Below, piece after piece: positions 23,561 to 35,665 of a stretch of 64,000 nt of DNA (position 1 is its first letter; every line of letters starts with the position of its first letter). Both the position numbers and the translations under genes were made by a program. Origin of the DNA: an uncultured Chloroflexia bacterium. GTDB taxonomy: Bacteria > Chloroflexota > Dehalococcoidia > UBA2979. The DNA lies in the NCBI GenBank assembly GCA_963728205.1, contig CAVSIV010000001.1, positions 672,001 to 736,000 of the forward strand. Direction: 5' to 3'. The notes under the pieces are model-generated. The model was not told where the DNA came from. It was given only the letters and a program-made list of their open reading frames with translations, and made no database searches.

Positions 23561-24157
23561 TCAGGCGGAGCGCGCCTCGGCGGCGGAGGCGGCGTCGAGC
23601 GCGGCGCGCAGCGCGTGCAGCGCACGCATCTGCGCCGCGCGCGCGGCAGCGGCGGTGCAACCGACGCGCTCCGCGATCTCGTCGTACGACAGGCCGTCGA
23701 TCACCCGCAGCCGCGTGATCCAGCGCTGCCGCGCCGTCAACGCCGAAAACGCGATCTCGATGCGCGCGTCGACCTGATCCGCCAGCGCCTGCTCCTCGGC
23801 AGACGGCTCGATCGGGTCGGGGCTCGCGTCGAGCGGGGAGCTCTGCTTCCGCGTCCGGTAGAAGTCCTTGATCGTGTTCGAGGCGATGTGGAAGAGCCAC
23901 ACATTGAACGGGCGCGACTGGTCGCGCCGGTCGATCGCGCGCAGCGCCTTGAGGAACGTGAGCTGGAGCACGTCCTCGGCGTCCTCGGGTTGCGGGAGCC
24001 GCCGCCGCGCGTAGGCCAGCAGGTCGCGCCGGTAGGCGGCGCAGAGCGTGCCGAAGGCGTCGCGGTCGCCGCCCGCCGCACGCGCCGAGAGGTCGCGCAC
24101 GGCGTCGGGCGTCAGCTCGGCCGCAACCGGCCCGAAGGGGAGGATGGCGTCGCTCAT
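23561..24157 (-). CDS. ECF sigma-70 factor (198 aa)
   Basis: Region 2 DAEDVLQLTFLKA..FNVWLFHIASNTIKDFYR; region 4 LTARQR..GLSYDEIAERVG..RALHALR. Confidence 0.9.
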   Translation of the reverse strand: MSDAILPFGPVAAELTPDAVRDLSARAAGGDRDAFGTLCAAYRRDLLAYARRRLPQPEDAEDVLQLTFLKALRAIDRRDQSRPFNVWLFHIASNTIKDFYRTRKQSSPLDASPDPIEPSAEEQALADQVDARIEIAFSALTARQRWITRLRVIDGLSYDEIAERVGCTAAAARAAQMRALHALRAALDAASAAEARSA

Positions 24158-24260
24158 ACCTGGAGAATCGGCTGAGTCGGCGCTGAAGATTACCCGCGCT
24201 CCCCTCTGCGGAACTGGCCGGACCGGCCGACAGGGGCCGCGTGACGCGCCGGGACGTGCG

Positions 24261-24289
24261 AAGGCGGGGGCCGTGGGCGCCCCCGCCTT
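24261..24289 (-). terminator. Hairpin after membrane gene 1 (repeated at 27455-27483)
   Basis: AAGGCGGGGGC ... GCCCCCGCCTT. Confidence 0.5.
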
Positions 24290-24312
24290 GGTGCTGAGCC
24301 GCGGTCCGCCGC

Positions 24313-25146
24313 CTATGCGGCGAGCCGTGCCCGCTTCGCCGCGATGAAGTCGGCGACGTCCTCGGAGGAGGCCTCGACCTCGGCGAGGAGCCGCTCGTAG
24401 TCGCGGATGAGCGCGTTGGCGCTGGCCGCGTCGAGCATGGCGCCCTTCGCCTTGGAGGCTCCCTGGCGGAGGGCCAGGGCGAGCACGCCAACCGGAGCGG
24501 TGAAGGCGGCGAAGCCGAGCGGACCGAGCTCTCGCCAGGAGAGTGCGAGCCCGAGGGCGACGAGGCCCATCACCGCGAAGTGGACGGCGAGCCAGAGGTA
24601 GTTGTCCTTGACGACCTTTCCGAGCGCCTGTCCGGTGGTGCACGAAATCATCGCGCCCACCAGCGTCATGTTGACGATCCACATCGCCAGCCCCGCCGCG
24701 ACGGCGGCGACGACGAGGGTGCCGGCGCTCTCCGGCATGAGCCGGGTGAGCCCCGCGTAGACCCCCGCCGCCGCGGTGCCGGCGAGCACCAGGACGGCGG
24801 AGTTGTAGGCGAGGCGGGAGACCGGCTTGTGGCGGAAGAGCCACGCGGCCAGCCCGACGACGATCGCGAGCGGCACGGCCGCCCCGACGCCGTAGAGGAT
24901 CCCGCCCCCGACGATCGCGGCCGCGGAGACGGACGCGCGCGTCTGGGTGAAGAGCTGGGTGCCCTGGCGTTCGAGCACCGCGGCGAGCGCCAGCATCAGC
25001 AGGAGCCCGCCCCATTCCGGCGGCCGGAGGAAGACCAGGAGGCCTGCTCCGGCGACCGCGCCGAATCCCGTCACCCCGTACAGGAGGGCCTGTGCCCTGC
25101 TCCGGGCGAGGGATGAGATCCACCGTGTGGTGGGACTCTCAGCCAT
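24313..25146 (-). CDS. Multi-TM putative membrane sensor with short C-terminal helix, copy 1
   Basis: About 7-8 TM helices; RLAYNSA and WIVNMTLV motifs; amphipathic tail; GAAAGG RBS. Confidence 0.85.
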   Translation of the reverse strand: MAESPTTRWISSLARSRAQALLYGVTGFGAVAGAGLLVFLRPPEWGGLLLMLALAAVLERQGTQLFTQTRASVSAAAIVGGGILYGVGAAVPLAIVVGLAAWLFRHKPVSRLAYNSAVLVLAGTAAAGVYAGLTRLMPESAGTLVVAAVAAGLAMWIVNMTLVGAMISCTTGQALGKVVKDNYLWLAVHFAVMGLVALGLALSWRELGPLGFAAFTAPVGVLALALRQGASKAKGAMLDAASANALIRDYERLLAEVEASSEDVADFIAAKRARLAA

Positions 25147-25185
25147 GGTGTCGACCTTTCAGCACAACACTCGCTCGGAGGGTGA

Positions 25186-26985
25186 CTAGTCCCAGGTGAT
25201 GGCATCCCAGGTGATGGCGTCCCACGTGATGCTGTCCCAGGTGATCGAGTCCCACGTGATGGCGTCCCACGTGATGGAGTCCCACGTGATCGAGTCCCAC
25301 GTGATGGAGTCCCACGTGATCGAGTCCGGCGACGCCGGCTTGTTCTGGATCGAGCCGTCGCTGCCGATCCACAGGCTCTTCGGGAGCCCCTGGTTCGCGG
25401 CGCCCTGGCTCGGGCCGAACACGGCATCGTAGGCATTCAGCGCCGGCGCGTTGGAGCTGGGGAACGTGTCAGCCGTCCCCGTCAGCTGGGCCTTCACCTG
25501 GTCCGGCGTGAGGGACGGGTTGTGCTGGAGCATCAGCGCGACGGTGCCGGAGACGACCGGGGCCGACTCGGAGGTGCCGCTGAGCATCATGTAGTGCTCG
25601 CCGACACGAAGCTTCGGGTTCTGCAGGTAGAGCAGCGACGGCTTGTTGCCCGTCGTCGCGATCAGGTGCCAGCCCGGGGCAACCAGGTCGGGCTTCTGGA
25701 ACCCGTCGTGCGTCGTGCCGTACGTCGACCACGACGCCAGCGTGTCGTCCGTCGTCTCGAGCGTCGCATTGTCGCTGAAGGCGCCGACGGAGATCACGTA
25801 CGGGTCGTTCGCGGGTGGGTGGTCCGTCGCGAACGCGTCGCTCGTGCCGAGGTTGCCCTCCGACGAGACGACGACGATGCCGTGGAACCACAGCTGCTCA
25901 ATCGCGGCGTCGAGCGGGCTCGTGAAGAAGCTCTCCGGCGTCGACTGCGTGAACGACATGTTCGCGACGCGGATGTTGTACTTCGCCTGGTTGTCCAGCA
26001 CGTACTCGAGACCCGCGAGGACGTCGCCGAGCTCGATGCCCTTTTCGAACGTTCCCACCTGGACGTCGACGATGTTCGCGTCCGGGGCGATACCCATGTA
26101 GCGCCCCTGGCTGTCAGCGCCGTTGCCCGCGATCACGCCGGCCGTGTGCGTGCCATGCCCGTACGGGTCGCGGACGCCCGCGAGCGCCGTGTCGTTCGGG
26201 GTGTAGCGCGCGACCACGCGGCCGCCGAAGTCGGAGCCGACGGCGTGGCTGACGCCGGTGTCGATGACCGCAACGCCGATGCCCTTACCGGTGACTCCCT
26301 CGTCCCAGACGTCGGTTGCGCCGACGACCTGCGGGAACACGGACACGACGTCGGTGTAGTCACCGCGCTGCTTCCCGTCGGGGAGCCTGGAGCCGAGGAT
26401 CGAGGCGCGGTCCTGGTGCGTACCCTTGGGGCCGGCGGCTGCCTTGGGGGCCGGCGTTGCCTTCGGCGCGGGGGCCGCCTTGGTGCCCGGGCCAACCTTC
26501 GGAGCGCGCGCCGCCTTCTTATCCGGTCCGGCCTTCGGGGCCGGAGTCGGGGTCGGGGTCGGCGTGCCCCCCGCCAGCAGCGACGTCCAGTTGTTGCGGT
26601 CTCGTGGGCCGCGGCCCGTCATCTCGATGTTCGAGTTGAGGCTGATCGACTTGACCGACGTGTTGCCGGCCAGCGCGTCGAGCTGGTCGACGGGGATGGT
26701 CGCCTCGACGGCGGGAATGATGTGGTACTGCTGCGACACGGTGCCGCCGGCCGCCTCGACGGCGGCAGCGGTGGCATCGGTATCGCCGGTGGACTGGATG
26801 ATGACGGCGACGAAGCCGTTGTCCTGGTTGGCGGTGTCGTACACGGCGGCGTTGACGTTGCTCGGGCCGGCGGCGCGGGCGGGGGCCTGCGACGCGGGCC
26901 CGAGCATGAGCGCGACCGCGACGAGCGCGACCAGGACGGTGAGGAAGACCGGCCAGCGCCGGCCGGTGAGCTTGTTCAGGACCAC
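25186..26985 (-). CDS. Secreted S8 (subtilisin-like) peptidase with 9 C-terminal (S/A)ITWD repeats, copy 1
   Basis: Signal peptide and prodomain; triad VAVIDTG / YGHGTH / SGTSES; GTG start after GGAAAG. Confidence 0.92.
   Translation of the reverse strand: MVLNKLTGRRWPVFLTVLVALVAVALMLGPASQAPARAAGPSNVNAAVYDTANQDNGFVAVIIQSTGDTDATAAAVEAAGGTVSQQYHIIPAVEATIPVDQLDALAGNTSVKSISLNSNIEMTGRGPRDRNNWTSLLAGGTPTPTPTPAPKAGPDKKAARAPKVGPGTKAAPAPKATPAPKAAAGPKGTHQDRASILGSRLPDGKQRGDYTDVVSVFPQVVGATDVWDEGVTGKGIGVAVIDTGVSHAVGSDFGGRVVARYTPNDTALAGVRDPYGHGTHTAGVIAGNGADSQGRYMGIAPDANIVDVQVGTFEKGIELGDVLAGLEYVLDNQAKYNIRVANMSFTQSTPESFFTSPLDAAIEQLWFHGIVVVSSEGNLGTSDAFATDHPPANDPYVISVGAFSDNATLETTDDTLASWSTYGTTHDGFQKPDLVAPGWHLIATTGNKPSLLYLQNPKLRVGEHYMMLSGTSESAPVVSGTVALMLQHNPSLTPDQVKAQLTGTADTFPSSNAPALNAYDAVFGPSQGAANQGLPKSLWIGSDGSIQNKPASPDSITWDSITWDSITWDSITWDAITWDSITWDSITWDAITWDAITWD
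25189..25323 (-). repeat. 9 x 15-bp coding tandem repeat = (S/A)ITWD
   Basis: Units differ only at synonymous positions and at Ser/Ala. Confidence 0.95.
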
Positions 26986-27058
26986 TGCACTTTCCAATCG
27001 CTGTTGGCGTTGGCGAATGCGTCACCGCTCGGCGCGTGCGTCGCGCCTCGCGGCGGGT

Positions 27059-27156
27059 CCCCGTTCGGCAGCCCGGCTACCCGTGGCTCTGTGTGAGCCG
27101 GGAGGGCCCGTGGCTTTGCGTCCCCCGGTTCCCCGGGGTTTGCCGTTGTCGTGGGG
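27059..27156 (-). ncRNA. c-di-GMP-I (GEMM) riboswitch, proximal type, upstream of peptidase 1
   Basis: CGACAACGGCAAACCCCGG-GGAA-CCGGGGGACGCAAAGCCACGGGCCC...GGGTAGCCGGGCTGCCG. Confidence 0.9.
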
Positions 27157-27258
27157 CCAGCTGGACTAGATGTGTGGCATCGTCTCGACTCCTCCGTCTC
27201 GCGGCCGCCTGGCGGCGGCTGCGCCCCTGATCCGAGGAGGGCGGAGGCATCGGGCCTC

Positions 27259-27362
27259 GCAACCTTCGGTAGCCCGGCCGTCATGACCCCTCGTACGAGG
27301 GGCGGTAGACCCGTGGGCTTTGCGCCACCCGGTTTCCCGGGCTTTGCCATTTCTCGGATTGC
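27259..27362 (-). ncRNA. c-di-GMP-I riboswitch, distal type, upstream of peptidase 1
   Basis: CGAGAAATGGCAAAGCCCGG-GAAA-CCGGGTGGCGCAAAGCCCACGGGTC...GACGGCCGGGCTACCG. Confidence 0.88.
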
Positions 27363-27410
27363 CGCTTGCCAGGGACGGCTCGCCGTTGCGGCGGGGCGTC
27401 CCTTACCCGG

Positions 27411-27440
27411 GAAGACGAACGACGGGCACTCCGCGTGACG
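27411..27440 (-). promoter_or_regulatory. ECF-type promoter CGTCACG-N16-CGTCTTC
   Basis: One of 5 copies with identical 16-nt spacing. Confidence 0.7.
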
Positions 27441-27506
27441 CGCCGGGACGTGCGAAGGCGGGGGCCGTGGGCGCCCCCGCCTTGGTGCTGAGCCGCGGTC
27501 CGCCGC

Positions 27507-28341
27507 CTATGCGGCGAGCCGTGCCCGCTTCGCCGCGATGAAGTCGGCGACGTCCTCGGAGGAGGCCTCGACCTCGGCGAGGAGCCGCTCGTAGTCGCGG
27601 ATGAGCGCGTTGGCGCTGGCCGCGTCGAGCATGGCGCCCTTCGCCTTGGAGGCTCCCTGGCGGAGGGCCAGGGCGAGCACGCCAACCGGAGCGGTGAAGG
27701 CGGCGAAGCCGAGCGGACCGAGCTCTCGCCAGGAGAGTGCGAGCCCGAGGGCGACGAGGCCCATCACCGCGAAGTGGACGGCGAGCCAGAGGTAGTTGTC
27801 CTTGACGACCTTTCCGAGCGCCTGTCCGGTGGTGCACGAGATCATCGCGCCCACCAGCGTCATGTTGACGATCCACATCGCCAGCCCCGCCGCGACGGCG
27901 GCGACGACGAGGGTGCCGGCGCTCTCCGGCATGAGCCGGGTGAGCCCCGCGTAGACCCCCGCCGCCGCGGTGCCGGCGAGCACCAGGACGGCGGAGTTGT
28001 AGGCGAGGCGGGAGACCGGCTTGTGGCGGAAGAGCCACGCGGCCAGCCCGACGACGATCGCGAGCGGCACGGCCGCCCCGACGCCGTAGAGGATCCCCGC
28101 CCCCGACGATCGCGGCCGCGGAGACGGACGCGCGCGTCTGGGTGAAGAGCTGGGTGCCCTGGCGTTCGAGCACCGCGGCGAGCGCCAGCATCAGCAGGAG
28201 CCCGCCCCATTCCGGCGGCCGGAGGAAGACCAGGAGGCCTGCTCCGGCGACCGCGCCAAATCCCGTCACCCCGTACAGGAGGGCCTGTGCCCTGCTCCGG
28301 GCGAGGGATGAGAGCCACCCGGTGGTGGAAGTCTCAGCCAT
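27507..28341 (-). CDS. Multi-TM putative membrane sensor, copy 2 (one extra C in a C-run near 28095)
   Basis: Nearly identical to 24313-25146 apart from the first few codons; GGATCCCCG versus GGATCCCG. Confidence 0.8.
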
Positions 28342-28382
28342 TGTGTCGACCTTTCAGCGCAACACTCACGCTCGGAGGGTGA

Positions 28383-30068
28383 CTAGTCCCAGGTAATCGA
28401 GTCCCAGGTGATGGCGTCCCACGTGATGCTGTCCCAGGTGATCGAGTCCCACGTGATGGCGTCCCACGTGATCGAGTCCCACGTGATGCTGTCCCAGGTG
28501 ATCGAGTCCCACGTGATCGAGTCCCACGTGATCGACGCCGGGCCGGCGGGGATGTTCTGGATCGAGCCGTCGCTGCCGATCCACAGGCTGCGCGGCAGCC
28601 CCTGGTTCGCGAGGCTCGCGTCCGCGGTGAACACCGCGCCGTACGCGTCGAGCGCCGGTGCGGTCGAGCCGGTGAAGGCCTTGCCCGTGTCGACGATCCG
28701 CGCCTTCACCTGGTCGGGCGTGAGCGACGGGTTCTGCTGCAGCATCAGGGCGACGGTGCCGGAGACCACCGGGGCCGCCGACGAGGTGCCGCTGAGCTTC
28801 ATGTAGCGTGAGCCGACACGCAGGTCCGGGTTGTCAAGGTACAGCAGCGACATCGCGTTGCCGGTGGTGGCGATCAGGCGCCATCCCGGGGCGATCACGT
28901 CCGGCTTCTGGAAGCCGTCGTGCGTCGTGCCGCGGCTCGACCAGTCCTTGAGGAAGTCGTCGGATGTGTCGAGCGTGGCGTTGTCGCTGAAGGCGCCCAC
29001 GGTGATGACGTACGGGTCGTTCGCTGGCGGGTGGTCCGTCACGTAGGCGTCGGACGTCCCGCGGTTGCCCGCAGCGGTCACGACGACGATGCCGTGGAAC
29101 CAGAGCTGCTCGACGGCGGCGTCGAGCGGGCTCGTGAAGAAGCTCTCCGGCGTCGACTGCGTGAACGAGAGGTTCGCGACGCGGATGTTGTACTGGGCCT
29201 GGTGGTCCAGCGTGTACTGGAGTCCGGCGATCACGTCGCCCAGCTTGATGCCCAGGGCGTAGTCACCGACGCGGACCGCGATGATGTTCGCGTCCGGTGC
29301 GATGCCCATGTAGCGCCCAAGGCTGTCGGTGCCGTCGCCGGCGACGATGCCGGCCACGTGCGTGCCGTGACCGTAGGCGTCGCTGCTGGTCAGTCCGCTC
29401 GGGGCGTAGCTCGCGACGATGCGGTTGCCGAAGTCGTTGCGACCGACGTCGTTCACGCCGGTGTCGATGATGGCGACCCCGACGCCCTGGCCCATGACGC
29501 CTTCATCCCAGGCGTCGGTGGCGCCGACGACCTGCGGGAACACCGAGACCACGTCCGTGTAGCGACCGCGCGCCTTCCCGTTCGGGAGGCTCTGGCCGAG
29601 GATCGAGTACCGGTCGGCCTTCGGCGTCGCGCTGTCGGTCGTGGGCGTGGGCGTCGCCGTGGCCTTGAGCAGCGACTTCCAGTCCGGGGCACCGAGACCG
29701 GTCGGCTGGATGTCCGAGTTCAGGCTGATCGACTTGACCGACGGGTTGGCGGCCAGCGCGTCGAGCTGGTCGACGGGGATGGTCGCCTCGACGGCGGGGA
29801 TGATGTGGAACTGCTGCGAGACCGTGCCGCCGGCAGTCGCGACGGCCGCGGCGGTGGCATCGGTATCGCCGGTGGACTGGATGATGACGGCGACGAAGCC
29901 GTTGTCCTGGTTGGCGGGGTCGAGGACGGCCGCGTGCACGTTGCTCGGGCCGGCCGCGCGGGCGGGTGCCTGCGAGGCGGGGCCGAGCATGAGCGCGACC
30001 GCGACGAGCGCGACCAGGACGGTGAGGAAGACCGGCCAGCGCCGGCCGGTGAGCTTGTTCAGGACCAC
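28383..30068 (-). CDS. Secreted S8 peptidase with 10 C-terminal (S/A)ITWD repeats, copy 2
   Basis: Signal peptide; triad VAIIDTG / YGHGTH / SGTSSA; AAGN oxyanion motif. Confidence 0.92.
   Translation of the reverse strand: MVLNKLTGRRWPVFLTVLVALVAVALMLGPASQAPARAAGPSNVHAAVLDPANQDNGFVAVIIQSTGDTDATAAAVATAGGTVSQQFHIIPAVEATIPVDQLDALAANPSVKSISLNSDIQPTGLGAPDWKSLLKATATPTPTTDSATPKADRYSILGQSLPNGKARGRYTDVVSVFPQVVGATDAWDEGVMGQGVGVAIIDTGVNDVGRNDFGNRIVASYAPSGLTSSDAYGHGTHVAGIVAGDGTDSLGRYMGIAPDANIIAVRVGDYALGIKLGDVIAGLQYTLDHQAQYNIRVANLSFTQSTPESFFTSPLDAAVEQLWFHGIVVVTAAGNRGTSDAYVTDHPPANDPYVITVGAFSDNATLDTSDDFLKDWSSRGTTHDGFQKPDVIAPGWRLIATTGNAMSLLYLDNPDLRVGSRYMKLSGTSSAAPVVSGTVALMLQQNPSLTPDQVKARIVDTGKAFTGSTAPALDAYGAVFTADASLANQGLPRSLWIGSDGSIQNIPAGPASITWDSITWDSITWDSITWDSITWDAITWDSITWDSITWDAITWDSITWD
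28386..28535 (-). repeat. 10 x 15-bp coding tandem repeat = (S/A)ITWD
   Basis: Synonymous codon variation among units. Confidence 0.95.
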
Positions 30069-30141
30069 TGCACTTTCCAATCGCTGTTGGCGTTGGCGAA
30101 TGCGTCACCGCTCGGCGCGTGCGTCGCGCCTCGCGGCGGGT

Positions 30142-30239
30142 CCCCGTTCGGCAGCCCGGCTACCCGTGGCTCTGTGTGAGCCGGGAGGGCCCGTGGCTTT
30201 GCGTCCCCCGGTTCCCCGGGGTTTGCCGTTGTCGTGGGG
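30142..30239 (-). ncRNA. c-di-GMP-I riboswitch, proximal type, upstream of peptidase 2
   Basis: Same sequence as 27059-27156. Confidence 0.9.
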
Positions 30240-30340
30240 CCGGGAGCTGGTTACGGGCTCGTCATGTTCCGAACCTCCGCTTCGCGACGCCCGGCGGCGT
30301 CTGCGCCCCTGATCCGAGGAAGACGGAGGCGGGCAGCCTC

Positions 30341-30443
30341 GCAACTTCGGTAGCCCGGCCGTCATGGCCCCTCGTACAAGGGGCGGTAGACCCGTGGGCT
30401 TTGCGCCACCCGGTTTCCCGGGCTTTGCCATTTCTCGGATTGC
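30341..30443 (-). ncRNA. c-di-GMP-I riboswitch, distal type, upstream of peptidase 2
   Basis: GGCAAAGCCCGG-GAAA-CCGGGTGGCGCAAAGCC...GGCCGGGCTACCG. Confidence 0.88.
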
Positions 30444-30491
30444 CGCTTGCCAGGGACGGCTCGCCGTTGCGGCGGGGCGTCCCTTACCCGG

Positions 30492-30521
30492 GAAGACGAA
30501 CGTCAGACCGGGTTTGTGACG
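30492..30521 (-). promoter_or_regulatory. ECF-type promoter CGTCACA-N16-CGTCTTC
   Basis: Conserved bipartite motif; spacer sequence differs from the other copies. Confidence 0.72.
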
Positions 30522-30588
30522 TATGTCGCGGGCGCCGTCGACCCTGAGCCGTCCGGCGCCCGCGCGTTTCATGTTGATCAGCCGCCGG

Positions 30589-30795
30589 CTAATCCCAGGT
30601 GATCGAGAACGTGCCGTAGCTCGGCCCGGGGGCCGGAGCGGGCGTCGAGGCGGCCGGGGGCCCGATCTGGCTCGACGAGGGCTTGGCCGCCGAGCTGACA
30701 CCCGGCGAGCCGAACAGCGAAGCACCGGCGAGGATTCCGCCGGCGACGACGGCGACGACGATGCGGTGGAGGTGACCAAACTTGCGCAGGACCAT
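30589..30795 (-). CDS. 68-aa secreted mini-protein ending in SITWD (candidate peptide precursor)
   Basis: MVLRKFGHLHR + hydrophobic stretch + SSA-A, Pro/Ser/Ala linker, ...YGTFSITWD-stop; start context matches the peptidases; has its own riboswitch pair and promoter. Confidence 0.85.
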   Translation of the reverse strand: MVLRKFGHLHRIVVAVVAGGILAGASLFGSPGVSSAAKPSSSQIGPPAASTPAPAPGPSYGTFSITWD

Positions 30796-30838
30796 TGCAC
30801 TGTCCCCATTCCGGATCATGAGACTCGTGGTGCGTGGT

Positions 30839-30937
30839 CCCCGTTCGGTAGCCCGGCTACCCGTGGCTCGGTGAGAGCCGGGAGGGCCCGTGGCTTTGCG
30901 TCCCCCGGTTCCCCGGGGTTTGCCGTTTGTCGTGGGG
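30839..30937 (-). ncRNA. c-di-GMP-I riboswitch, proximal type, upstream of the mini-protein
   Basis: GGCAAACCCCGG-GGAA-CCGGGGGACGCAAAGCC...GGTAGCCGGGCTACCG. Confidence 0.9.
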
Positions 30938-31040
30938 TACGTGACTCAGGTGCGACTGGTCATCGGCCCCTCCGCTCCTGCAGCCCCCGGTGCGGGTCGC
31001 TGCTCCTCAGAATCCGAGGAAGACGGAGGCGGGAGGCCTC

Positions 31041-31143
31041 GCAATCTTCGGTAGCCCGGCCGTCATGACCCCTCGACGAGGGGCGGTAGACCCGTGGGCT
31101 TTGCGCCACCCGGTTTCCCGGGTTTTGCCGTTTCTCGGATTGC
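31041..31143 (-). ncRNA. c-di-GMP-I riboswitch, distal type, upstream of the mini-protein
   Basis: GGCAAAACCCGG-GAAA-CCGGGTGGCGCAAAGCC...GGCCGGGCTACCG. Confidence 0.88.
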
Positions 31144-31190
31144 CTGCATGCGCGGGACGCGCGACCTCCGTCGAGAGTCCCGTCACCGGA

Positions 31191-31220
31191 GAAGACGAAC
31201 GGGTACCGGCCGGTGTGACG
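31191..31220 (-). promoter_or_regulatory. ECF-type promoter CGTCACA-N16-CGTCTTC
   Basis: Conserved bipartite motif. Confidence 0.72.
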
Positions 31221-31340
31221 CGAACGGGCGAGGATGGCGCGCACCGGCGCGGGCGCCGGTGGCGAGACGCGGGCGCACCGCCCGCGTCACGCGCGACGCC
31301 GCCGCTCCACGCGTGCACCGGACGAACCGAGGGGCGGGGG

Positions 31341-32174
31341 CTAGGCGGCGACCTGCGGGCGGTGCGTGGCGATGAACTCCGCGACGTCCTCCGAGGAGGA
31401 CTCCACCTCGGCCAGCAGCCGCTCGTACTCCGCGATCAGCTGGTTCGCGCTCGCGGCGTCGAGCATGGCGCCCTGCGCCTTCGACGCGCCCTGGCGCAGC
31501 GCCAGCGCCAGCACGCCGACCGGCGCGGTGAACGCCGCGAAGCCGAGCATCCCCAGTTCGCGCCATGACAGCGCGAGTCCGAGCGCAACGAGTCCCATCA
31601 CGGCGAAGTGCACCGCGAGCCACAGGTAGTTCTCGCGGATGACGGCGAGCAGCGGCTGCCCGGTCGTGAGCGCGATCATCGCGCCGACCAGGCTCATGTT
31701 GACGGTCCACATCGCGATGCCGGCGCCGACGGCCGCGACCACGAAGGTCGCCGCGCTCGCGGGCAGGAGCGACGTGATCAGCGCGTACGTCCCGGCGGAC
31801 GCCGCGCCGGCCAGGATCAGCACCGCCGAGTTGTAGGTCAGCCGAGAGAACGGCTTGTGCCGGAAGAGCCAGGCCGCGAGGCCCACGGCGATCGCCAGCG
31901 GGACCGCGGCGCCGACGCCGTAGAGGATGCCGGCACCCATGATCGCCGCGGCTGAGACCGAGGCGCGCGTCTGCGTGAAGAGCTGCGTGCCCTGCCGCTC
32001 GATGACAGCCGCGAGCGCGATGGTGAGCAGGAGGCCGCCCCACTCGCGGGGCTGGAGGAAGGCGAGGAAGCCGAGGCCGGCGAGCGCGCCGATGACGGAG
32101 ACCGCCACGAGCAGCACCTGCGGGCGGTTGGCGAGGAGCGACGGCTGCGGCCGCGCGTCGGTCGTCGTTGCCAT
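31341..32174 (-). CDS. Multi-TM putative membrane sensor, copy 3 (diverged)
   Basis: 277 aa, collinear with copy 1 (ERQGTQLFTQTRASVSAAAI, NYLWLAVHF, EYERLLAEVE); GAGAGGG RBS. Confidence 0.87.
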   Translation of the reverse strand: MATTTDARPQPSLLANRPQVLLVAVSVIGALAGLGFLAFLQPREWGGLLLTIALAAVIERQGTQLFTQTRASVSAAAIMGAGILYGVGAAVPLAIAVGLAAWLFRHKPFSRLTYNSAVLILAGAASAGTYALITSLLPASAATFVVAAVGAGIAMWTVNMSLVGAMIALTTGQPLLAVIRENYLWLAVHFAVMGLVALGLALSWRELGMLGFAAFTAPVGVLALALRQGASKAQGAMLDAASANQLIAEYERLLAEVESSSEDVAEFIATHRPQVAA

Positions 32175-32283
32175 GTCGTCCCTCTCGTTCCCTCGACCGA
32201 ACGGGCGCGTCTTCCTTCGGGTTGCCCCGGCGCCGCGCGGGCGCGATCCGTTCCCTCCGCCGTGCGGAGGGCCGCTCGTTTCC

Positions 32284-32313
32284 TAGGACGATGCGCGGCG
32301 CCGATCTGTGACG
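32284..32313 (-). promoter_or_regulatory. ECF-type promoter CGTCACA-N16-CGTCCTA
   Basis: Upstream of membrane gene 3; no riboswitch in this leader. Confidence 0.65.
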
Positions 32314-32334
32314 TCCGCACCGCCCCGCGTTCGA

Positions 32335-32754
32335 CTAGCCGAACGGCAACGTGCCCCGTTCGGCCAGCAGCCGCATGATTTCGAACCCGCCGACCAGGCC
32401 CGAGACCACCGACAGCGCCACGATCAGCCCCGTCTGGCCGGCGCGCATCAGCGCGCTCGCGCCCGCCGCGGCGCCCCCGGCGGTCGTTGCCTTGTCGCCG
32501 GCGCGGAGGTAGCGCACCTCCTGCTTCGCCGGCCGGCCCTCGATCCCCATCGCGTCATACGCGGTGCGGTTCGTGGGGTTCGAGAGGACGTCGAACGCCC
32601 TGCGCAGTCGGTCGACCTTGTTGGGGTCTGCGACGTGCACGCGCATGAGGCGGCCGTACGCCGCGCGGATCACGGGATCCGACGCACGCGGCGAGACTTC
32701 CAGCTCCTCGTAGAGCAGGAACCCCGGCTGCTCATAGTCGTACTGAAGGGACAT
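32335..32754 (-). CDS. J-domain-like protein lacking HPD, with C-terminal TM helix
   Basis: LYEELEVSPRAS..VIRAAYGRLMRVH(VAD)P..AFDVLSNP..RTAYD; C-terminal hydrophobic segment. Confidence 0.75.
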   Translation of the reverse strand: MSLQYDYEQPGFLLYEELEVSPRASDPVIRAAYGRLMRVHVADPNKVDRLRRAFDVLSNPTNRTAYDAMGIEGRPAKQEVRYLRAGDKATTAGGAAAGASALMRAGQTGLIVALSVVSGLVGGFEIMRLLAERGTLPFG

Positions 32755-32828
32755 CTTCGCCCCCGAGCCGCACCGGCTGGCAAACAAGATCATCGGCACG
32801 GGCGAGGCGATCGCCCATGCCGACGGGT

Positions 32829-32928
32829 CCCGTTCGGCGGCCCGGCTGCCCGCGACCACCTGCGCGGCGGCCGGGAGGGCCCGTGGCTTTGCGTCCCCCG
32901 GTTCCCCGGGGTTTGCCGTTTCGCGGGG
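32829..32928 (-). ncRNA. c-di-GMP-I riboswitch (single) upstream of the J-like gene
   Basis: GGCAAACCCCGG-GGAA-CCGGGGGACGCAAAGCCACGGGCCC...GGGCAGCCGGGCCGCCG. Confidence 0.88.
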
Positions 32929-33018
32929 CGCGCCTCTCAACGCGCCGTGCACACCCGCCCGACGCGCGCTTGCACGCCGCATCCTGGAGAGAGCCTGCTG
33001 CTCCCCCTCGCTACGGAA

Positions 33019-33048
33019 GAAGACGAGCGGGCGTGCCGCGCTGTGACG
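33019..33048 (-). promoter_or_regulatory. ECF-type promoter CGTCACA-N16-CGTCTTC
   Basis: Conserved bipartite motif at the locus edge. Confidence 0.72.
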
Positions 33049-33066
33049 CGGGATGCCGGTGCCCGG

Positions 33067-35665
33067 TCAGGCGTCCAGCCAGAGGGCGACCGGGAACGTC
33101 GCCAGCGCGTCGTCGAGGCGGTGGCGCGACGACGGACCGCGGCGGCGGCCGGTGAAGACGTCGACGAACGAGCGCGTCGCGATCGCGGGAGGCAATCGCA
33201 ACGCGGTGTCGCCCCAGCGCAGCGGCGGCAGCCCGGTGCCCGGGCGCGAGGGCGGGAGCATGGCAGACGCGAGCCGCGGCACGACCACGACGGCCGTGCG
33301 TTCCGCGTACCGCCGCGCGAACGCAACGACCCGCTCGGCATGCGCGCCGGTCGCCGCGAGCGGCTCGTAGTCGCCCTCGAGGAAGAGCGCCGGGTCCTCG
33401 CGCCGCTCGCGCAGTGCCCGCGAGAGCGCATAGAGCTTCGCGCGGCCGTCGGTCCACCCGCGCAGCAGCGGCTCGAGGCCGCCCGCCGGCGGTGCCGGCG
33501 GCCCCGCGGCGTCGAGCGCGGCCAGCGCCGTGCGCCGCTCGTCGAAGTCGACGGGCCGGCGGTTGTCCGGGTCGACCAGCGAGAGGTCCCACAGGTCGGC
33601 GCCCTGGTACGTGTCCGGCACGCCGGGCGACGCCGCCTTGAGCACGACCTGCGCCAGCGCGTGCAGGGCGCCGATCGTCGCCGCGCGCTCGGCGAGCGGC
33701 CGCACGGCGTCGACGAACGCCGCGTCGTGGAGCGCCCCGGTGACGAAGCGGTCGAGGCCGCGCTCGTACGCCATCTCCGGCTCGAATCCAGCTGGTGTGC
33801 GTCTCAGCCTCGCGGGCGGCCTTTCGAAGGTACCCGCGGACGCGCACGACATACGCGTCGTCGAGCGCGGCGCCGACGGGCCACGTGCCGACCAGCACCT
33901 GGTAGAAGGCATACTCGCGCGTGGGCGACGGCGCCGCGTCGCCGAGGCTCGCCCGCAGCGGGGCGAGGTGCGCCGACCAGCGCCGGACGGCGTCCTCCCA
34001 CTCCGCGGACAGCTCCGAGAGCGCGCTGATGCGGAGGCGCGTGTCCTCACCGCGCTTGTGATCGTGCGTGGCCGTCGCGAGCATCGTGCGCGGCCAGCGG
34101 CGGCGACGGGCGTCGTTCTGGCGATGGAAGCGCTCGACGCTCGTGCCGAAGCGGTCGGGCGAGCCGCCGACCTCGCAGAGCGAGAGCAGCCGGGGATAGC
34201 GGAAGAACGCGGTGTCTTCGAGCCCCTTCGCCTGCACCGCCGGTGTGAGCTGCTGGAGCGCCATCACCGCGCGGCGCGCGGCGCCGGGCGCCGGCGCGGC
34301 GAGCGCATCGGCCGCGGCGTCGAGCGCCGCGGGGTTCGCGTCGACGGCGAGCCGGCCCGCGATCTGCCGCGCGCGAGCCACGACGCTGCGCGCGGCCGGG
34401 TCGAGGGTGTCCTCGCTGTGGTAGGTCCGATACACGGGGAGGGCGGCGAGGAGCGCGCGCACGGCGGCGGCGAACGGTTCGGGGGGCGGGGGCGCGAGGG
34501 CGGCGCCGCCCGCGCCGAGCTCGCCGGCGGCGGCGGCGAGCGCCCCGTGCAGACGGGCGGCGGCGGCGTCGAGCTGCACGCGCAGCGTGCCGTCCGCGAT
34601 CTCGCGCCGGCTCGCGAACGCGAGCTCGCCGTACGCGCGCTCGTCGCCCGTGAACGCCCGATACAGCCGCGTCAGCGCGCGCTCGGCGTGCGCGTCGACG
34701 AACAGGCCGCCCACGTCGTTGAGGAAGTCGTAGCCGGTGGTGCCGTCGCACGACCAGGCAGGCGGCAGGTGCTCGTCGCCCTCGAGGATCTTCTCTACCG
34801 AGACATACGACGGGGCGAGCCGCTCGCGCACGCGCTCCAGGTACCCGGCCGGGTCGGCGAGCCCGTCCGGGTGGTCGACGCGCAGACCCTGCACCGCTCC
34901 GTCGGCGACGAGCCGCCGCGGCAGCGCGTGGACGCGGTCGAAGACCGCGGGGTCCTCGACGCGCAGGCCGACGAGGTCGTCGATCAGGAAGAAGCGGCGA
35001 TAGTTCACGCGCTCCTTGCCCGAGAGCCAGTGCTCGAGGCGGTAGTGCTGCCGCTCGAGGAGCGCCGGGAGAGCCGTGGTCGCCGCCGCGGCGGCGTCTT
35101 CCGGGCGCAGCGGCAGACGATGCTCGAAGTAGCGCAGCCAGCCGCCGTCCGCATCGCTCTCGACGGTGAGCTCGCCGCGCGCCATCACCGCAGCGGGTTC
35201 GTCGCCGAGGATCGGCAGGACGATGCGCCCGTGCAGCGCGGGGTCCGCCGGCTCCCAGTCGATGTCGAAGAACGGCGCGTACGGCGAGTCGCGGCCGCGC
35301 CGCAGCACGTCCTCCCACCAGGCGTTGCGGCCGGCGGCCACGCCCATGTGGTTCGGCACGATGTCGATGACCTGGCCCAGGCCGAGCCGCCGCTGCTCCG
35401 AGACGAGCCGCGCGTACGCCGCTTCGCCGCCGAGCTCGGGGTTGAGCCGCTCCGGATCGATGACGTCGTAGCCGTGCGTGCTGCCGGGCGCTGCCGCCGC
35501 GATCGGCGAGAGGTAGACGTGCGTGATGCCGAGGTCGCGGAGGTAGGGGAGGACGGCGGCGGCGTCGTCGAAGGTGAAGCCGGCGTGCAGCTGGAGCCGG
35601 TAGGTGGCGGCGACCGGTGCGATCGGGCGCGCAGCCCGGCGCGCGGACGGTCGCGCGCTAGGCAC
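33067..35665 (-). CDS. treY: Malto-oligosyltrehalose synthase (frameshift near 33785)
   Basis: ATYRLQ, GSTHGYDV, DIVPNHMG, NYRRFF, GLRVDHPDGL, THDHKRGED, SLVDPDNRRPVDF. Confidence 0.9.

Follow-up and report, generated by a model that had tools for sequence, protein, structure and literature searches.

A small gene behind tandem c-di-GMP-I aptamers encodes a predicted exported protein ending in one unit of the tryptophan-tailed subtilases in a Chloroflexota genome

The DNA considered here, called the window throughout, is a stretch of 64,000 nucleotides from an uncultured Chloroflexia bacterium (assembly GCA_963728205.1, contig CAVSIV010000001.1, positions 672,001 to 736,000). Its minus strand carries, at 30589..30795, a small open reading frame (ORF) of 68 codons followed by TAG, located by six-frame ORF reading and translation. 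Judged from its sequence, this ORF is a real gene and not a decaying remnant. It is part of a cassette composed of a promoter-like motif, two c-di-GMP-I aptamers (class I, for cyclic diguanosine monophosphate), a Shine-Dalgarno (SD) sequence, the 68-codon ORF itself and a GC-rich hairpin. What is new is the product: a small protein, predicted to be exported, that in effect is the regulatory and targeting shell of a tryptophan (Trp)-tailed peptidase with a single tail unit. The explanation that we favour, and hold tentatively, is that this protein would be a catalysis-free mimic of the peptidase tail acting on a protease-sensor unit.

The small gene, its leader and its family

Translation of window positions 30589-30795 on the minus strand yields MVLRKFGHLHRIVVAVVAGGILAGASLFGSPGVSSAAKPSSSQIGPPAASTPAPAPGPSYGTFSITWD, 68 aa and then TAG. 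This product, MVLRK...PGPSYGTFSITWD, terminates in YGTFSITWD directly before the stop and bears out the initial annotation, which had described a 68-aa ORF with a signal-like N-terminus, a Pro/Ser/Ala spacer and one terminal SITWD. The codons are ATG GTC CTG at the start and ATC ACC TGG GAT TAG at the end, and the terminal unit S-I-T-W-D (residues 64-68; 30592..30606, minus strand) is encoded by 15 nt identical to a peptidase repeat unit. The G+C content at third codon positions (GC3) is 0.88 versus 0.62-0.63 at the first and second; the neighbouring peptidase genes of this 4.1-Mb genome of 72.5% G+C show the same bias. The identical 68-aa product is recorded as a called gene of this same assembly. 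An SD-like GGGGA read from the sequence at 30803..30807 (minus strand) lies 7 nt 5' of the ATG, and GAGAGG and GGAGA occupy the equivalent position before the small genes of two related genomes, G001 and G003, presented below. An alternative frame of 76 codons starting from 30819 was rejected because the relatives keep the SD before MVL and have no in-frame ATG upstream. Pfam and NCBIfam returned no match to the product, and in the protein Atlas its matches to small clusters labelled 'secreted' or 'Tat signal' were sub-threshold (0.87-0.88), hence leads only.

The N-terminus (residues 1-30; 30706..30795, minus strand) resembles a signal peptide or a membrane anchor by charge, hydropathy and AlphaFold2 (AF2) prediction. 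The n-region MVLRKFGHLHR has a net charge of +3 and precedes a hydrophobic core of about 17-19 residues within an uncharged stretch (residues 12-37), with a maximal Kyte-Doolittle hydropathy, KD(15), of 2.32. After position 30, P, S, A, G and T make up 76% of the residues of the spacer. From a 5-row alignment, AF2 predicted a helix at residues 2-28 and no fold for the remainder, with a mean predicted local distance difference test (pLDDT) score of 59. Many candidate signal peptidase I sites satisfy the -3/-1 rule, for example SSA|AKP, this being a count by the rule alone and not by a trained predictor. The segment may be a putative Sec signal peptide or an uncleaved membrane anchor, its length being borderline between the two.

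The leader contains, at 31191..31220 (minus strand), a promoter-like bipartite motif, CGTCAC-N13-CGTTCGTCTTC, which recurs 5' of the leaders of the two neighbouring peptidase genes, pep2 (30492-30521) and pep1 (27411-27440), and of the G001 small gene. In relaxed form it occurs at three sites of the 4.1-Mb assembly, all at the tandem-aptamer leaders of this locus, and the CGTCAC motif is found again, with N17 spacing, 5' of the G003 peptidase. It is a putative promoter. The extracytoplasmic function (ECF) promoter proposed in the initial annotation is borne out only in part: the bipartite motif does stand at all three leaders, as a candidate element, and a scan of 30100-31400 for sigma-70-like promoters found none.

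Between this motif and the ORF, on the same strand, lie two full-length members of RF01051, whose gathering score is 35 bits: aptamer 1 at 31047..31139 (minus strand, 66.9 bits) and aptamer 2 at 30844..30934 (minus strand, 63.5 bits), each covering model positions 1-87 of 87. The tandem riboswitches claimed for the ORF are therefore upheld as two complete c-di-GMP-I aptamers. They are ordinary members of their class, and tandem arrangements of c-di-GMP-I aptamers are already described in the cited part of PMC12452182. Through these putative riboswitches the small ORF would come under c-di-GMP control.

A GC-rich hairpin of 36 nt, a possible terminator lacking a U tract, was found by folding after the stop codon (30528..30563, minus strand). 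The fold of 30440-30600 has an energy of -82.6 kcal/mol and a z-score of -3.57; a scan of 30100-31400 for consensus terminators found none. Downstream of the G003 gene a hairpin followed by TTTG was recognized by eye only. Since the hairpin and, directly 3' of it, the promoter-like motif of the next unit follow the stop at once, the ORF is the sole coding content of a compact cassette.

To look for relatives, the RF01051 model was run against the genus's three remaining genomes and against genome G023. Tandem aptamers with an intact ORF behind them were found on G001:C62, where the ORF encodes 93 aa (MVLKQISRLHRPLIAV...SPAPGIQSLAITWD, TAG stop), and on G003:C121, where it encodes 91 aa (MVLNTFARVHRPLLTL...APGTVNPLSITWN, TAG stop). 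Both ORFs start with ATG GTC CTG and end with ATC ACC TGG GAY/AAC TAG, and their GC3 is 0.90-0.91, giving 0.88-0.91 over all three ORFs for which DNA was at hand. Tandem c-di-GMP-I aptamers precede the small gene in each of the three genomes having it. Neither the G001 nor the G003 gene is adjacent to a peptidase, and no peptidase repeats lie nearby; their flanks contain, by eye, oxidoreductase-, hydratase- and amidohydrolase-like ORFs on the opposite strand that are not the same in G001 as in G003. The initial annotation had named beforehand what could refute the small gene, namely its being decayed or lacking in close relatives; G001 and G003 were found to hold intact ORFs with aptamers of their own, and the outcome fails to refute it.

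A profile built from the three sequences was compared with 1.84 billion representative proteins (E<=0.001) and gave five matches, namely four family members (P0001, P0055, P0056 and P0058) and one unrelated repeat protein of 1111 aa. Three of the four members are the query proteins themselves or close variants; P0058 represents a fourth lineage (64 aa, ...PLPGGVSPTSITWD) and is recorded from 3 contigs, and P0055 from 10. With two metagenomic sequences beyond the three genomes, the family comprises five sequences of 64-93 aa with 35-48% identity to P0001, the protein of the window, in which the middle region differs in length by at most 29 residues and always in frame. The alignment of the five has M1, V2, R11, L22, P54, P56, G57, I65, T66 and W67 invariant; conservation is confined to three parts, namely the N-terminal segment for putative export or anchoring, the linker motif PxPG and, at the very C-terminus, [SA]-I-T-W-[DN]. 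I-T-W is kept, and the protein ends exactly at the unit boundary, in all five. A charged n-region (+3) followed by a hydrophobic core is common to P0001, P0055 and P0056; P0058, on which the automatic split failed, has the same build by eye only, and the maximal KD(15) is 1.83-2.51 across these four.

The family is very small and restricted to the genus. The small gene is present in three of the four genomes of the genus and was not found in the remaining one (G002, 80% complete). The other 95 genomes of the taxonomic family gave only weak matches (E 6.4e-5 to 7.9e-3), located inside open frames of 193-669 aa and not in small genes, and none of 400 further genomes sampled from the class had it. 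A homologous-protein search with the 68-aa query recovered only itself among 9 candidates of 37-119 aa, and none of the 596 pattern matches of a locus search with P0058 was confirmed. Metagenome contigs searched with ATCACCTGGGAYTAG yielded at least 120 stretches; of the 80 loci examined, one (L088, a G001-type gene) belongs to the family, and 79 matched by chance. G007, G111, G120, G061 and G009 gave tail matches that were discarded as wrong-frame or low-complexity repeats.

Two further readings of the gene were set aside. A leader peptide for pep2 is ruled out by the free-standing genes of G001 and G003. A precursor of a ribosomally synthesized and post-translationally modified peptide (RiPP) was rejected as well, since translations read by eye showed no maturase-like gene around any of the three small genes.

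Probable descent from a tailed peptidase gene

The initial annotation had offered, as one possibility, a peptidase gene reduced to its signal peptide plus one repeat; its alternative, a dedicated peptide precursor, may also apply. Translated in six frames, the 4.1-Mb genome contains ITWD 27 times, with 19 copies in the two peptidases, 1 here and 7 elsewhere, a count that identifies the match in the small ORF as homology and not chance. The leaders of the cassette and of the peptidases share 83-85% identity. The resemblance of the cassette to the peptidase units ends about 40 nt before the start codon, resumes over 25 nt around the SD and start (GGACAGTGCAATGGTCCTG vs GGAAAGTGCAGTGGTCCTG) and returns thereafter only in the 15 nt encoding SITWD. 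The mirrored start context previously noticed is confirmed, GGACAGTGCA-ATG-GTC-CTG aligning with GGAAAGTGCA-GTG-GTC-CTG of both peptidases. The peptidases of the genus start with MVLNK or MVLHK and have a comparable signal and a Pro-rich linker before the first unit (...IQNIPAGPA-SITWD, ...EPASLD-SITWD); the small proteins start with MVL[RKN] or MVR and have PxPG-x3-5 before their unit. TAG directly follows the last Trp unit in all five genes whose DNA was displayed (three small genes and two peptidases; window, L056 and L057).

Because leader, MVL start, signal, Pro-rich linker, unit and TAG stop are common to both, deletion is the simplest history: the small-gene family probably descends from a Trp-tailed S8 peptidase gene by an old internal deletion, its product having been kept thereafter. 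The reduction is taken as old, and not as a fresh local deletion, because relatives stand at unrelated loci in two other genomes. As to the shared parts, the reduction first proposed is supported. The 68-aa product has neither a Peptidase_S8 domain nor an array of units (1 unit vs 9-21 in the peptidases of the genus), and by its predicted features the small gene is a derivative of the Trp-tailed S8 gene type and not a member of it.

The position of the cassette would have a separate history. In a cross-genome comparison, its leader agrees to 77-80% with the local peptidase leaders, as against 68% with the leader of the G001 small gene and 57% with that of the G003 one, and the G003 array consists of a J-like gene, a MASE9-like gene, a leader, a peptidase and a MASE9-like gene, with no cassette within. 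These leader identities and the cassette-free array of G003 suggest that the cassette entered the array in the lineage of the window by recombination between homologous leaders.

The same leader identities could speak for a non-functional remnant of recombination among leader-peptidase units, open by chance. The region does rearrange, as its array of 88-92% identical units and a broken membrane-protein gene (memB) attest, and searches of G002 and, beyond the genus, of the 95 family and 400 class genomes did not find the gene. Against such an origin stand the intact relatives, with matching termini and tandem aptamers of their own, that occur in metagenomes and at unrelated loci of G001 and G003, GC3 values of 0.88-0.91, length differences that all keep the frame, and an SD and start kept at the same place; on these grounds the remnant is already disfavoured, and we regard it as very improbable.

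The unit itself can be followed independently of the peptidases. The G003 small gene ends in SITWN vs the 21 AITWD units of that genome's peptidase, so that its unit was not simply copied from the repeats, and gene conversion cannot explain the conservation of the unit in G001 and G003, where no peptidase repeats lie near the gene. Its conservation suggests that the unit has a function of its own. SITWD had been proposed as a functional unit independent of catalysis: I-T-W is indeed invariant in five of five sequences that lack a catalytic domain, including those at two loci devoid of peptidase repeats, and as a whole that interpretation is partly supported.

Tailed peptidases, MASE9-like proteins and the possible role of the unit

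The surroundings of the cassette were read from a self-comparison of 24000-33500. On the minus strand the order is a single aptamer, a DnaJ-like gene, memA, leader and small ORF, leader with pep2 and memB, leader with pep1 and memC, the units of this tandem array being 88-92% identical. pep2 (28383..30068, minus strand) is an S8 peptidase by its Peptidase_S8 match, with ten C-terminal [SA]ITWD units and tandem aptamers at 30346-30439 and 30146-30236; pep1 (25186..26985, minus strand) has the same match, nine [SA]ITWD units and tandem aptamers at 27265-27358 and 27063-27153. Directly upstream of the cassette, memA (31341..32174, minus strand) encodes a 277-aa membrane protein recognized as MASE9-like by profile comparison. 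Its paralogues, both identified by their match to memA, follow the peptidases on the same strand, memB after pep2 (27431-28257) with a broken frame and memC after pep1 (24313-25146).

S8 peptidases with x-I-T/S/K/R-W-D/E tails are common in Chloroflexota metagenome bins, with 51 database proteins (E<=0.001) of 4-21 units; some of their tails end exactly at the unit boundary and others carry extra residues. A Pfam scan of six tailed peptidases (E<=0.1 or 0.01) gave Peptidase_S8 as the sole match, with no Pentapeptide (PF00805) or other repeat family. In the AF2 model of pep2 the catalytic part is modelled well, and an N-terminal alpha/beta segment without a family match is presumably a propeptide; the tail has a pLDDT of 40-50 and forms no beta-helix.

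A memA homologue lies directly 3' of every tailed peptidase locus examined, namely L039, L040, L041, L042, the broken L052 and both window units, and L039 has one on each side of the peptidase. The 20 relatives of memA (E<=1e-5) include an HD-GYP protein annotated as MASE9 (P0078). A memA profile aligned with residues 62-266 of P0078 (hhalign probability 98.3%, E 2.3e-14), and residues 62-213 of P0078 match Pfam MASE9 (PF20972) with 27.0 bits vs a cut-off of 24.3. memA itself has no MASE9 match even at E<=10, so that it is best called MASE9-like, by way of its alignment with P0078 rather than a direct Pfam match. In G002 and G003:C83 the memA-like membrane domain forms the N-terminus of a PAS-GGDEF-EAL protein (33% identity, 6e-26), and the G002 GGDEF-EAL homologue matches MASE9 at E 0.6 only.

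The loci of the genus differ consistently. At L041 (G002:C238) and L042 (G003:C83), peptidases with GIRWD or GIKWD units stand behind a single aptamer and before MASE9-like-PAS-GGDEF-EAL genes. Peptidases with [SA]ITWD units, and the small genes, stand behind tandem aptamers, these peptidases being accompanied by stand-alone 277-aa MASE9-like proteins. The peptidase of G023, with GITWD and GISWD units, has a stand-alone MASE9-like gene and one aptamer only. It follows that unit type, aptamer number and sensor architecture go together in the genus. At L052 (G001:C94:1-2758), tandem aptamers, an N-terminal peptidase part only and then, after a change of frame, a MASE9-like segment and an apparent EAL end were read by eye, all within 1.3 kb; the locus may be collapsed or degraded, or it may be a misassembly.

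The mechanism that we tentatively favour starts from these associations. The small protein would be exported via Sec under c-di-GMP control and would display a single Trp unit on the outer side of the membrane, with the Pro/Ser/Ala spacer as a flexible linker. Its partner in that place would be the one that also interacts with the peptidase tails of 9-21 units; the most plausible candidate is the intramembrane sensor of MASE9 type whose gene follows each tailed peptidase. By competing with the tail or substituting for it, it could tune the protease-sensor unit without proteolysis, and this unit would in turn feed back on c-di-GMP. MASE9 has been proposed by its definers, in the part of their preprint cited here, to bind ligands within the membrane (bioRxiv 10.1101/2021.11.05.467447), which would suit an interfacial Trp motif. 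In the window, memA is the only MASE9-like paralogue not preceded by a peptidase, and the cassette directly follows it.

Several observations weigh against this mechanism. No MASE9-like gene was found within about 3 kb around the small gene in G001 and G003, so that its adjacency to a sensor is seen only in the window. The distribution of the small gene is far narrower than that of the widespread tailed peptidases, so that the module can do without the small protein. The tail pLDDT of 40-50 provides no structural basis for an interface between tail and partner, and, should avidity matter, binding by a single unit is expected to be much weaker than by an array of 9-21. Finally, the fold of the expression platform, from aptamer 2 through the start codon, is not significant (z-score -0.43); the putative switch may be of either sense, ON or OFF. 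A complex predicted for memA and residues 31-68 of the small protein, from alignments of 17 and 5 rows respectively, scored 0.06 vs a mark of 0.32 without controls, which is evidence neither way.

The build of the family can also be read as that of a propeptide resembling Phr. Once the signal peptide is removed, the co-regulated S8 peptidases or proteases of another kind would cut free the five C-terminal residues, or a somewhat longer stretch, to act as a diffusible signal, of which the tails of the peptidases would be multi-copy stores. Conserved ends around a hypervariable pro-region and a size of 64-93 aa agree with this, as does the exact ending at the unit boundary in five of five members; S8 peptidases are co-regulated and adjacent, and a membrane sensor gene, a candidate receptor, accompanies them. 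As far as the cited part of PMC11343458 describes them, RRNPPA propeptides have 50-120 aa, Sec export, a peptide of 5-10 residues that is usually C-terminal and maturation by extracellular proteases, subtilisin-type ones among them, and tandemly duplicated pheromones within one propeptide are known (PMC11343458). However, no RRNPPA receptor with tetratricopeptide repeats (TPR) stands beside the gene, whose Pfam-scanned neighbours are S8, MASE9-like and DnaJ-like; the last residue of the unit is D or N within one genus; and the tails of distant peptidases are heterogeneous (DITWE, SITWE, GLTWE, AFDWQ) with further sequence after them, which gives them the look of a domain rather than of one signal repeated in series. 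We consider a released peptide of this kind unlikely.

The same Trp unit could instead bind an envelope component, the membrane interface or other units, the small protein being part of the surface or the matrix, or offering the peptidase tails a place to dock; perhaps the N-terminal helix stays uncleaved and anchors the protein while the Pro/Ser/Ala linker spans the wall, as part of a c-di-GMP-controlled surface programme. The hydrophobic segment of 17-19 residues, borderline between signal peptide and anchor, and the disordered linker with 76% P/S/A/G/T are compatible with this, and the multi-copy tails suggest binding by avidity, as in wall-binding repeats. Other c-di-GMP-I aptamers of this genome and its relatives precede, by eye, pilus-like and cell-wall-hydrolase-like genes, and small membrane-associated proteins behind c-di-GMP riboswitches are known in Clostridioides difficile from the cited part of PMC13724677. 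Yet the tail matches no known wall-binding or pentapeptide-repeat family and has no predicted fold, and the narrow distribution of the family argues against a core envelope role, so that anchoring to the envelope appears rather improbable.

A bolder extension joins the sensor with a released peptide. The Trp unit would be a membrane-partitioning peptide signal for MASE9 sensors, the tails stores of it cut loose by the peptidases and the small gene a protease-independent, single-dose source, closing a loop from c-di-GMP through the tandem riboswitch, the Trp peptide and MASE9 (with or without GGDEF-EAL) back to c-di-GMP. This is a speculation to which we assign a distinctly low probability; if true, it would constitute an undescribed autocrine or cell-to-cell peptide signalling in Chloroflexota.

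Further features of the array and the genome were recorded. memB is split over two frames, memA residues 12-82 and 80-268 matching separately (ORFs 27403-28341 and 27507-28070), and may be a frameshifted paralogue or an assembly error. The second aptamers of the peptidase leaders (30146-30236 and 27063-27153) match best RF03167, c-di-GMP-I-GGC (61.5 bits vs a gathering score of 59); they score 63.8 with RF01051 alone, and aptamer 2 of the cassette is called plain c-di-GMP-I. The DnaJ-like protein (142 aa; 32335-32763, minus strand; Pfam DnaJ at 27.1 bits, just under the cut-off of 27.8) has a C-terminus that is hydrophobic by eye and follows a single c-di-GMP-I aptamer (32833-32927, minus strand, 44.6 bits); a gene on G003:C25, 73% identical to it over 75 residues, stands upstream of a MASE9-like gene. 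Outside the window, a third S8 peptidase of the genome (L037, G000:C1:60252-60365) ends in 6 SSYWD units, and neither a c-di-GMP-I aptamer nor a memA-like gene was found near it with the queries used. The other three c-di-GMP-I aptamers of the genome lie at G000:C1:774752-774840, C1:782192-782286 and C6:264006-264096; behind that at 782192 stands a gene that by eye looks TadE-like (pilus), and those at 774752 and C6:264006 precede ORFs with hydrophobic N-termini and no assigned function.

Among sequencing runs, the search matched no RNA run, and the best DNA run contained 0.21 of the sampled words. Four contig runs cover mainly the conserved aptamer cores. In one contig (487 nt) of run X3, the cassette's aptamer 2 (30818-30908) and the leader that comes next (30393-30456) are linked by 333 other letters in place of the 361 of the window; it may be a diverged copy of the same arrangement.

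Comparison with known systems

Searches of open-access text found no description of the Trp unit, the tail, the pairing of tail and sensor or such a small protein. Trp-tailed secreted subtilases beside a membrane sensor appear widespread yet undescribed, and the role of the tail is the central question. In this respect the small gene amounts to a construct made by nature, in which the enzyme is gone while regulation, putative export signal and precisely one tail unit are retained. It is valuable above all as a way into the undescribed module of tail and sensor. As a minimal reagent for binding to the sensor, envelope or peptidase and for cleavage by the peptidase, a peptide of some 30-60 residues would serve, or just its last 5-12 residues.

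The closest counterparts are the two Trp-tailed S8 subtilases of the window, with which the small gene shares the x-I-x-W-D/E unit (Trp every fifth residue), leader, start, signal type, linker and stop codon; like them, it adjoins a MASE9-like gene in the window. It differs from them in having no I9 propeptide, no S8 domain and 1 unit instead of 9-21, and in being free-standing in G001 and G003. The tryptophan-repeat (WR) domain of NANOG, a eukaryotic nuclear protein, also has Trp at every fifth residue, is disordered and self-associates, with no known homology to the Trp unit.

The Phr/RRNPPA systems of Bacillota, as presented in the cited passages of PMC11343458, likewise rely on a small precursor with putative Sec export, a variable pro-region and a conserved short C-terminal peptide, and subtilisin-type extracellular proteases take part in the maturation of Phr (PMC11343458). 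The present gene belongs to another phylum, lacks an adjacent cytoplasmic TPR receptor, is preceded by tandem riboswitches that would control it and has an intramembrane sensor as its candidate receptor.

LapD and LapG of Pseudomonas fluorescens similarly combine a membrane c-di-GMP protein and an exported protease in one unit, as outlined in the cited part of PMC3032553. LapG is kept in the periplasm by LapD, a sensor of cytoplasmic c-di-GMP; the domains are unrelated to those described here, and in that part of the source the tail-only protein has no LapD/LapG counterpart (PMC3032553). In C. difficile, the secreted protease PPEP-1 (Zmp1) and its secreted partners CD2831 and CD3246 are both under c-di-GMP riboswitches, according to the cited parts of PMC6447587 and PMC6366702. 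PPEP-1 is a metalloprotease, and the partners are large sortase-anchored adhesins cut at Pro-rich sites, with no shared repeat unit in these accounts (PMC6447587, PMC6366702).

The small gene resembles in kind the CD1980.2 family of C. difficile, 58-aa membrane-associated proteins encoded behind class I c-di-GMP riboswitches and likewise easily missed (PMC13724677, cited in part). Compared by description only, these proteins act on sporulation, stand behind single aptamers and share no motif with a protease, and the family is reported there to lack homologues outside C. difficile (PMC13724677). Small proteins behind class I c-di-GMP riboswitches of C. difficile have recently been shown, in the same cited part, to be real and functional (PMC13724677). 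After that family, the gene presented here is a second example of an easily missed small-protein gene behind c-di-GMP riboswitches.

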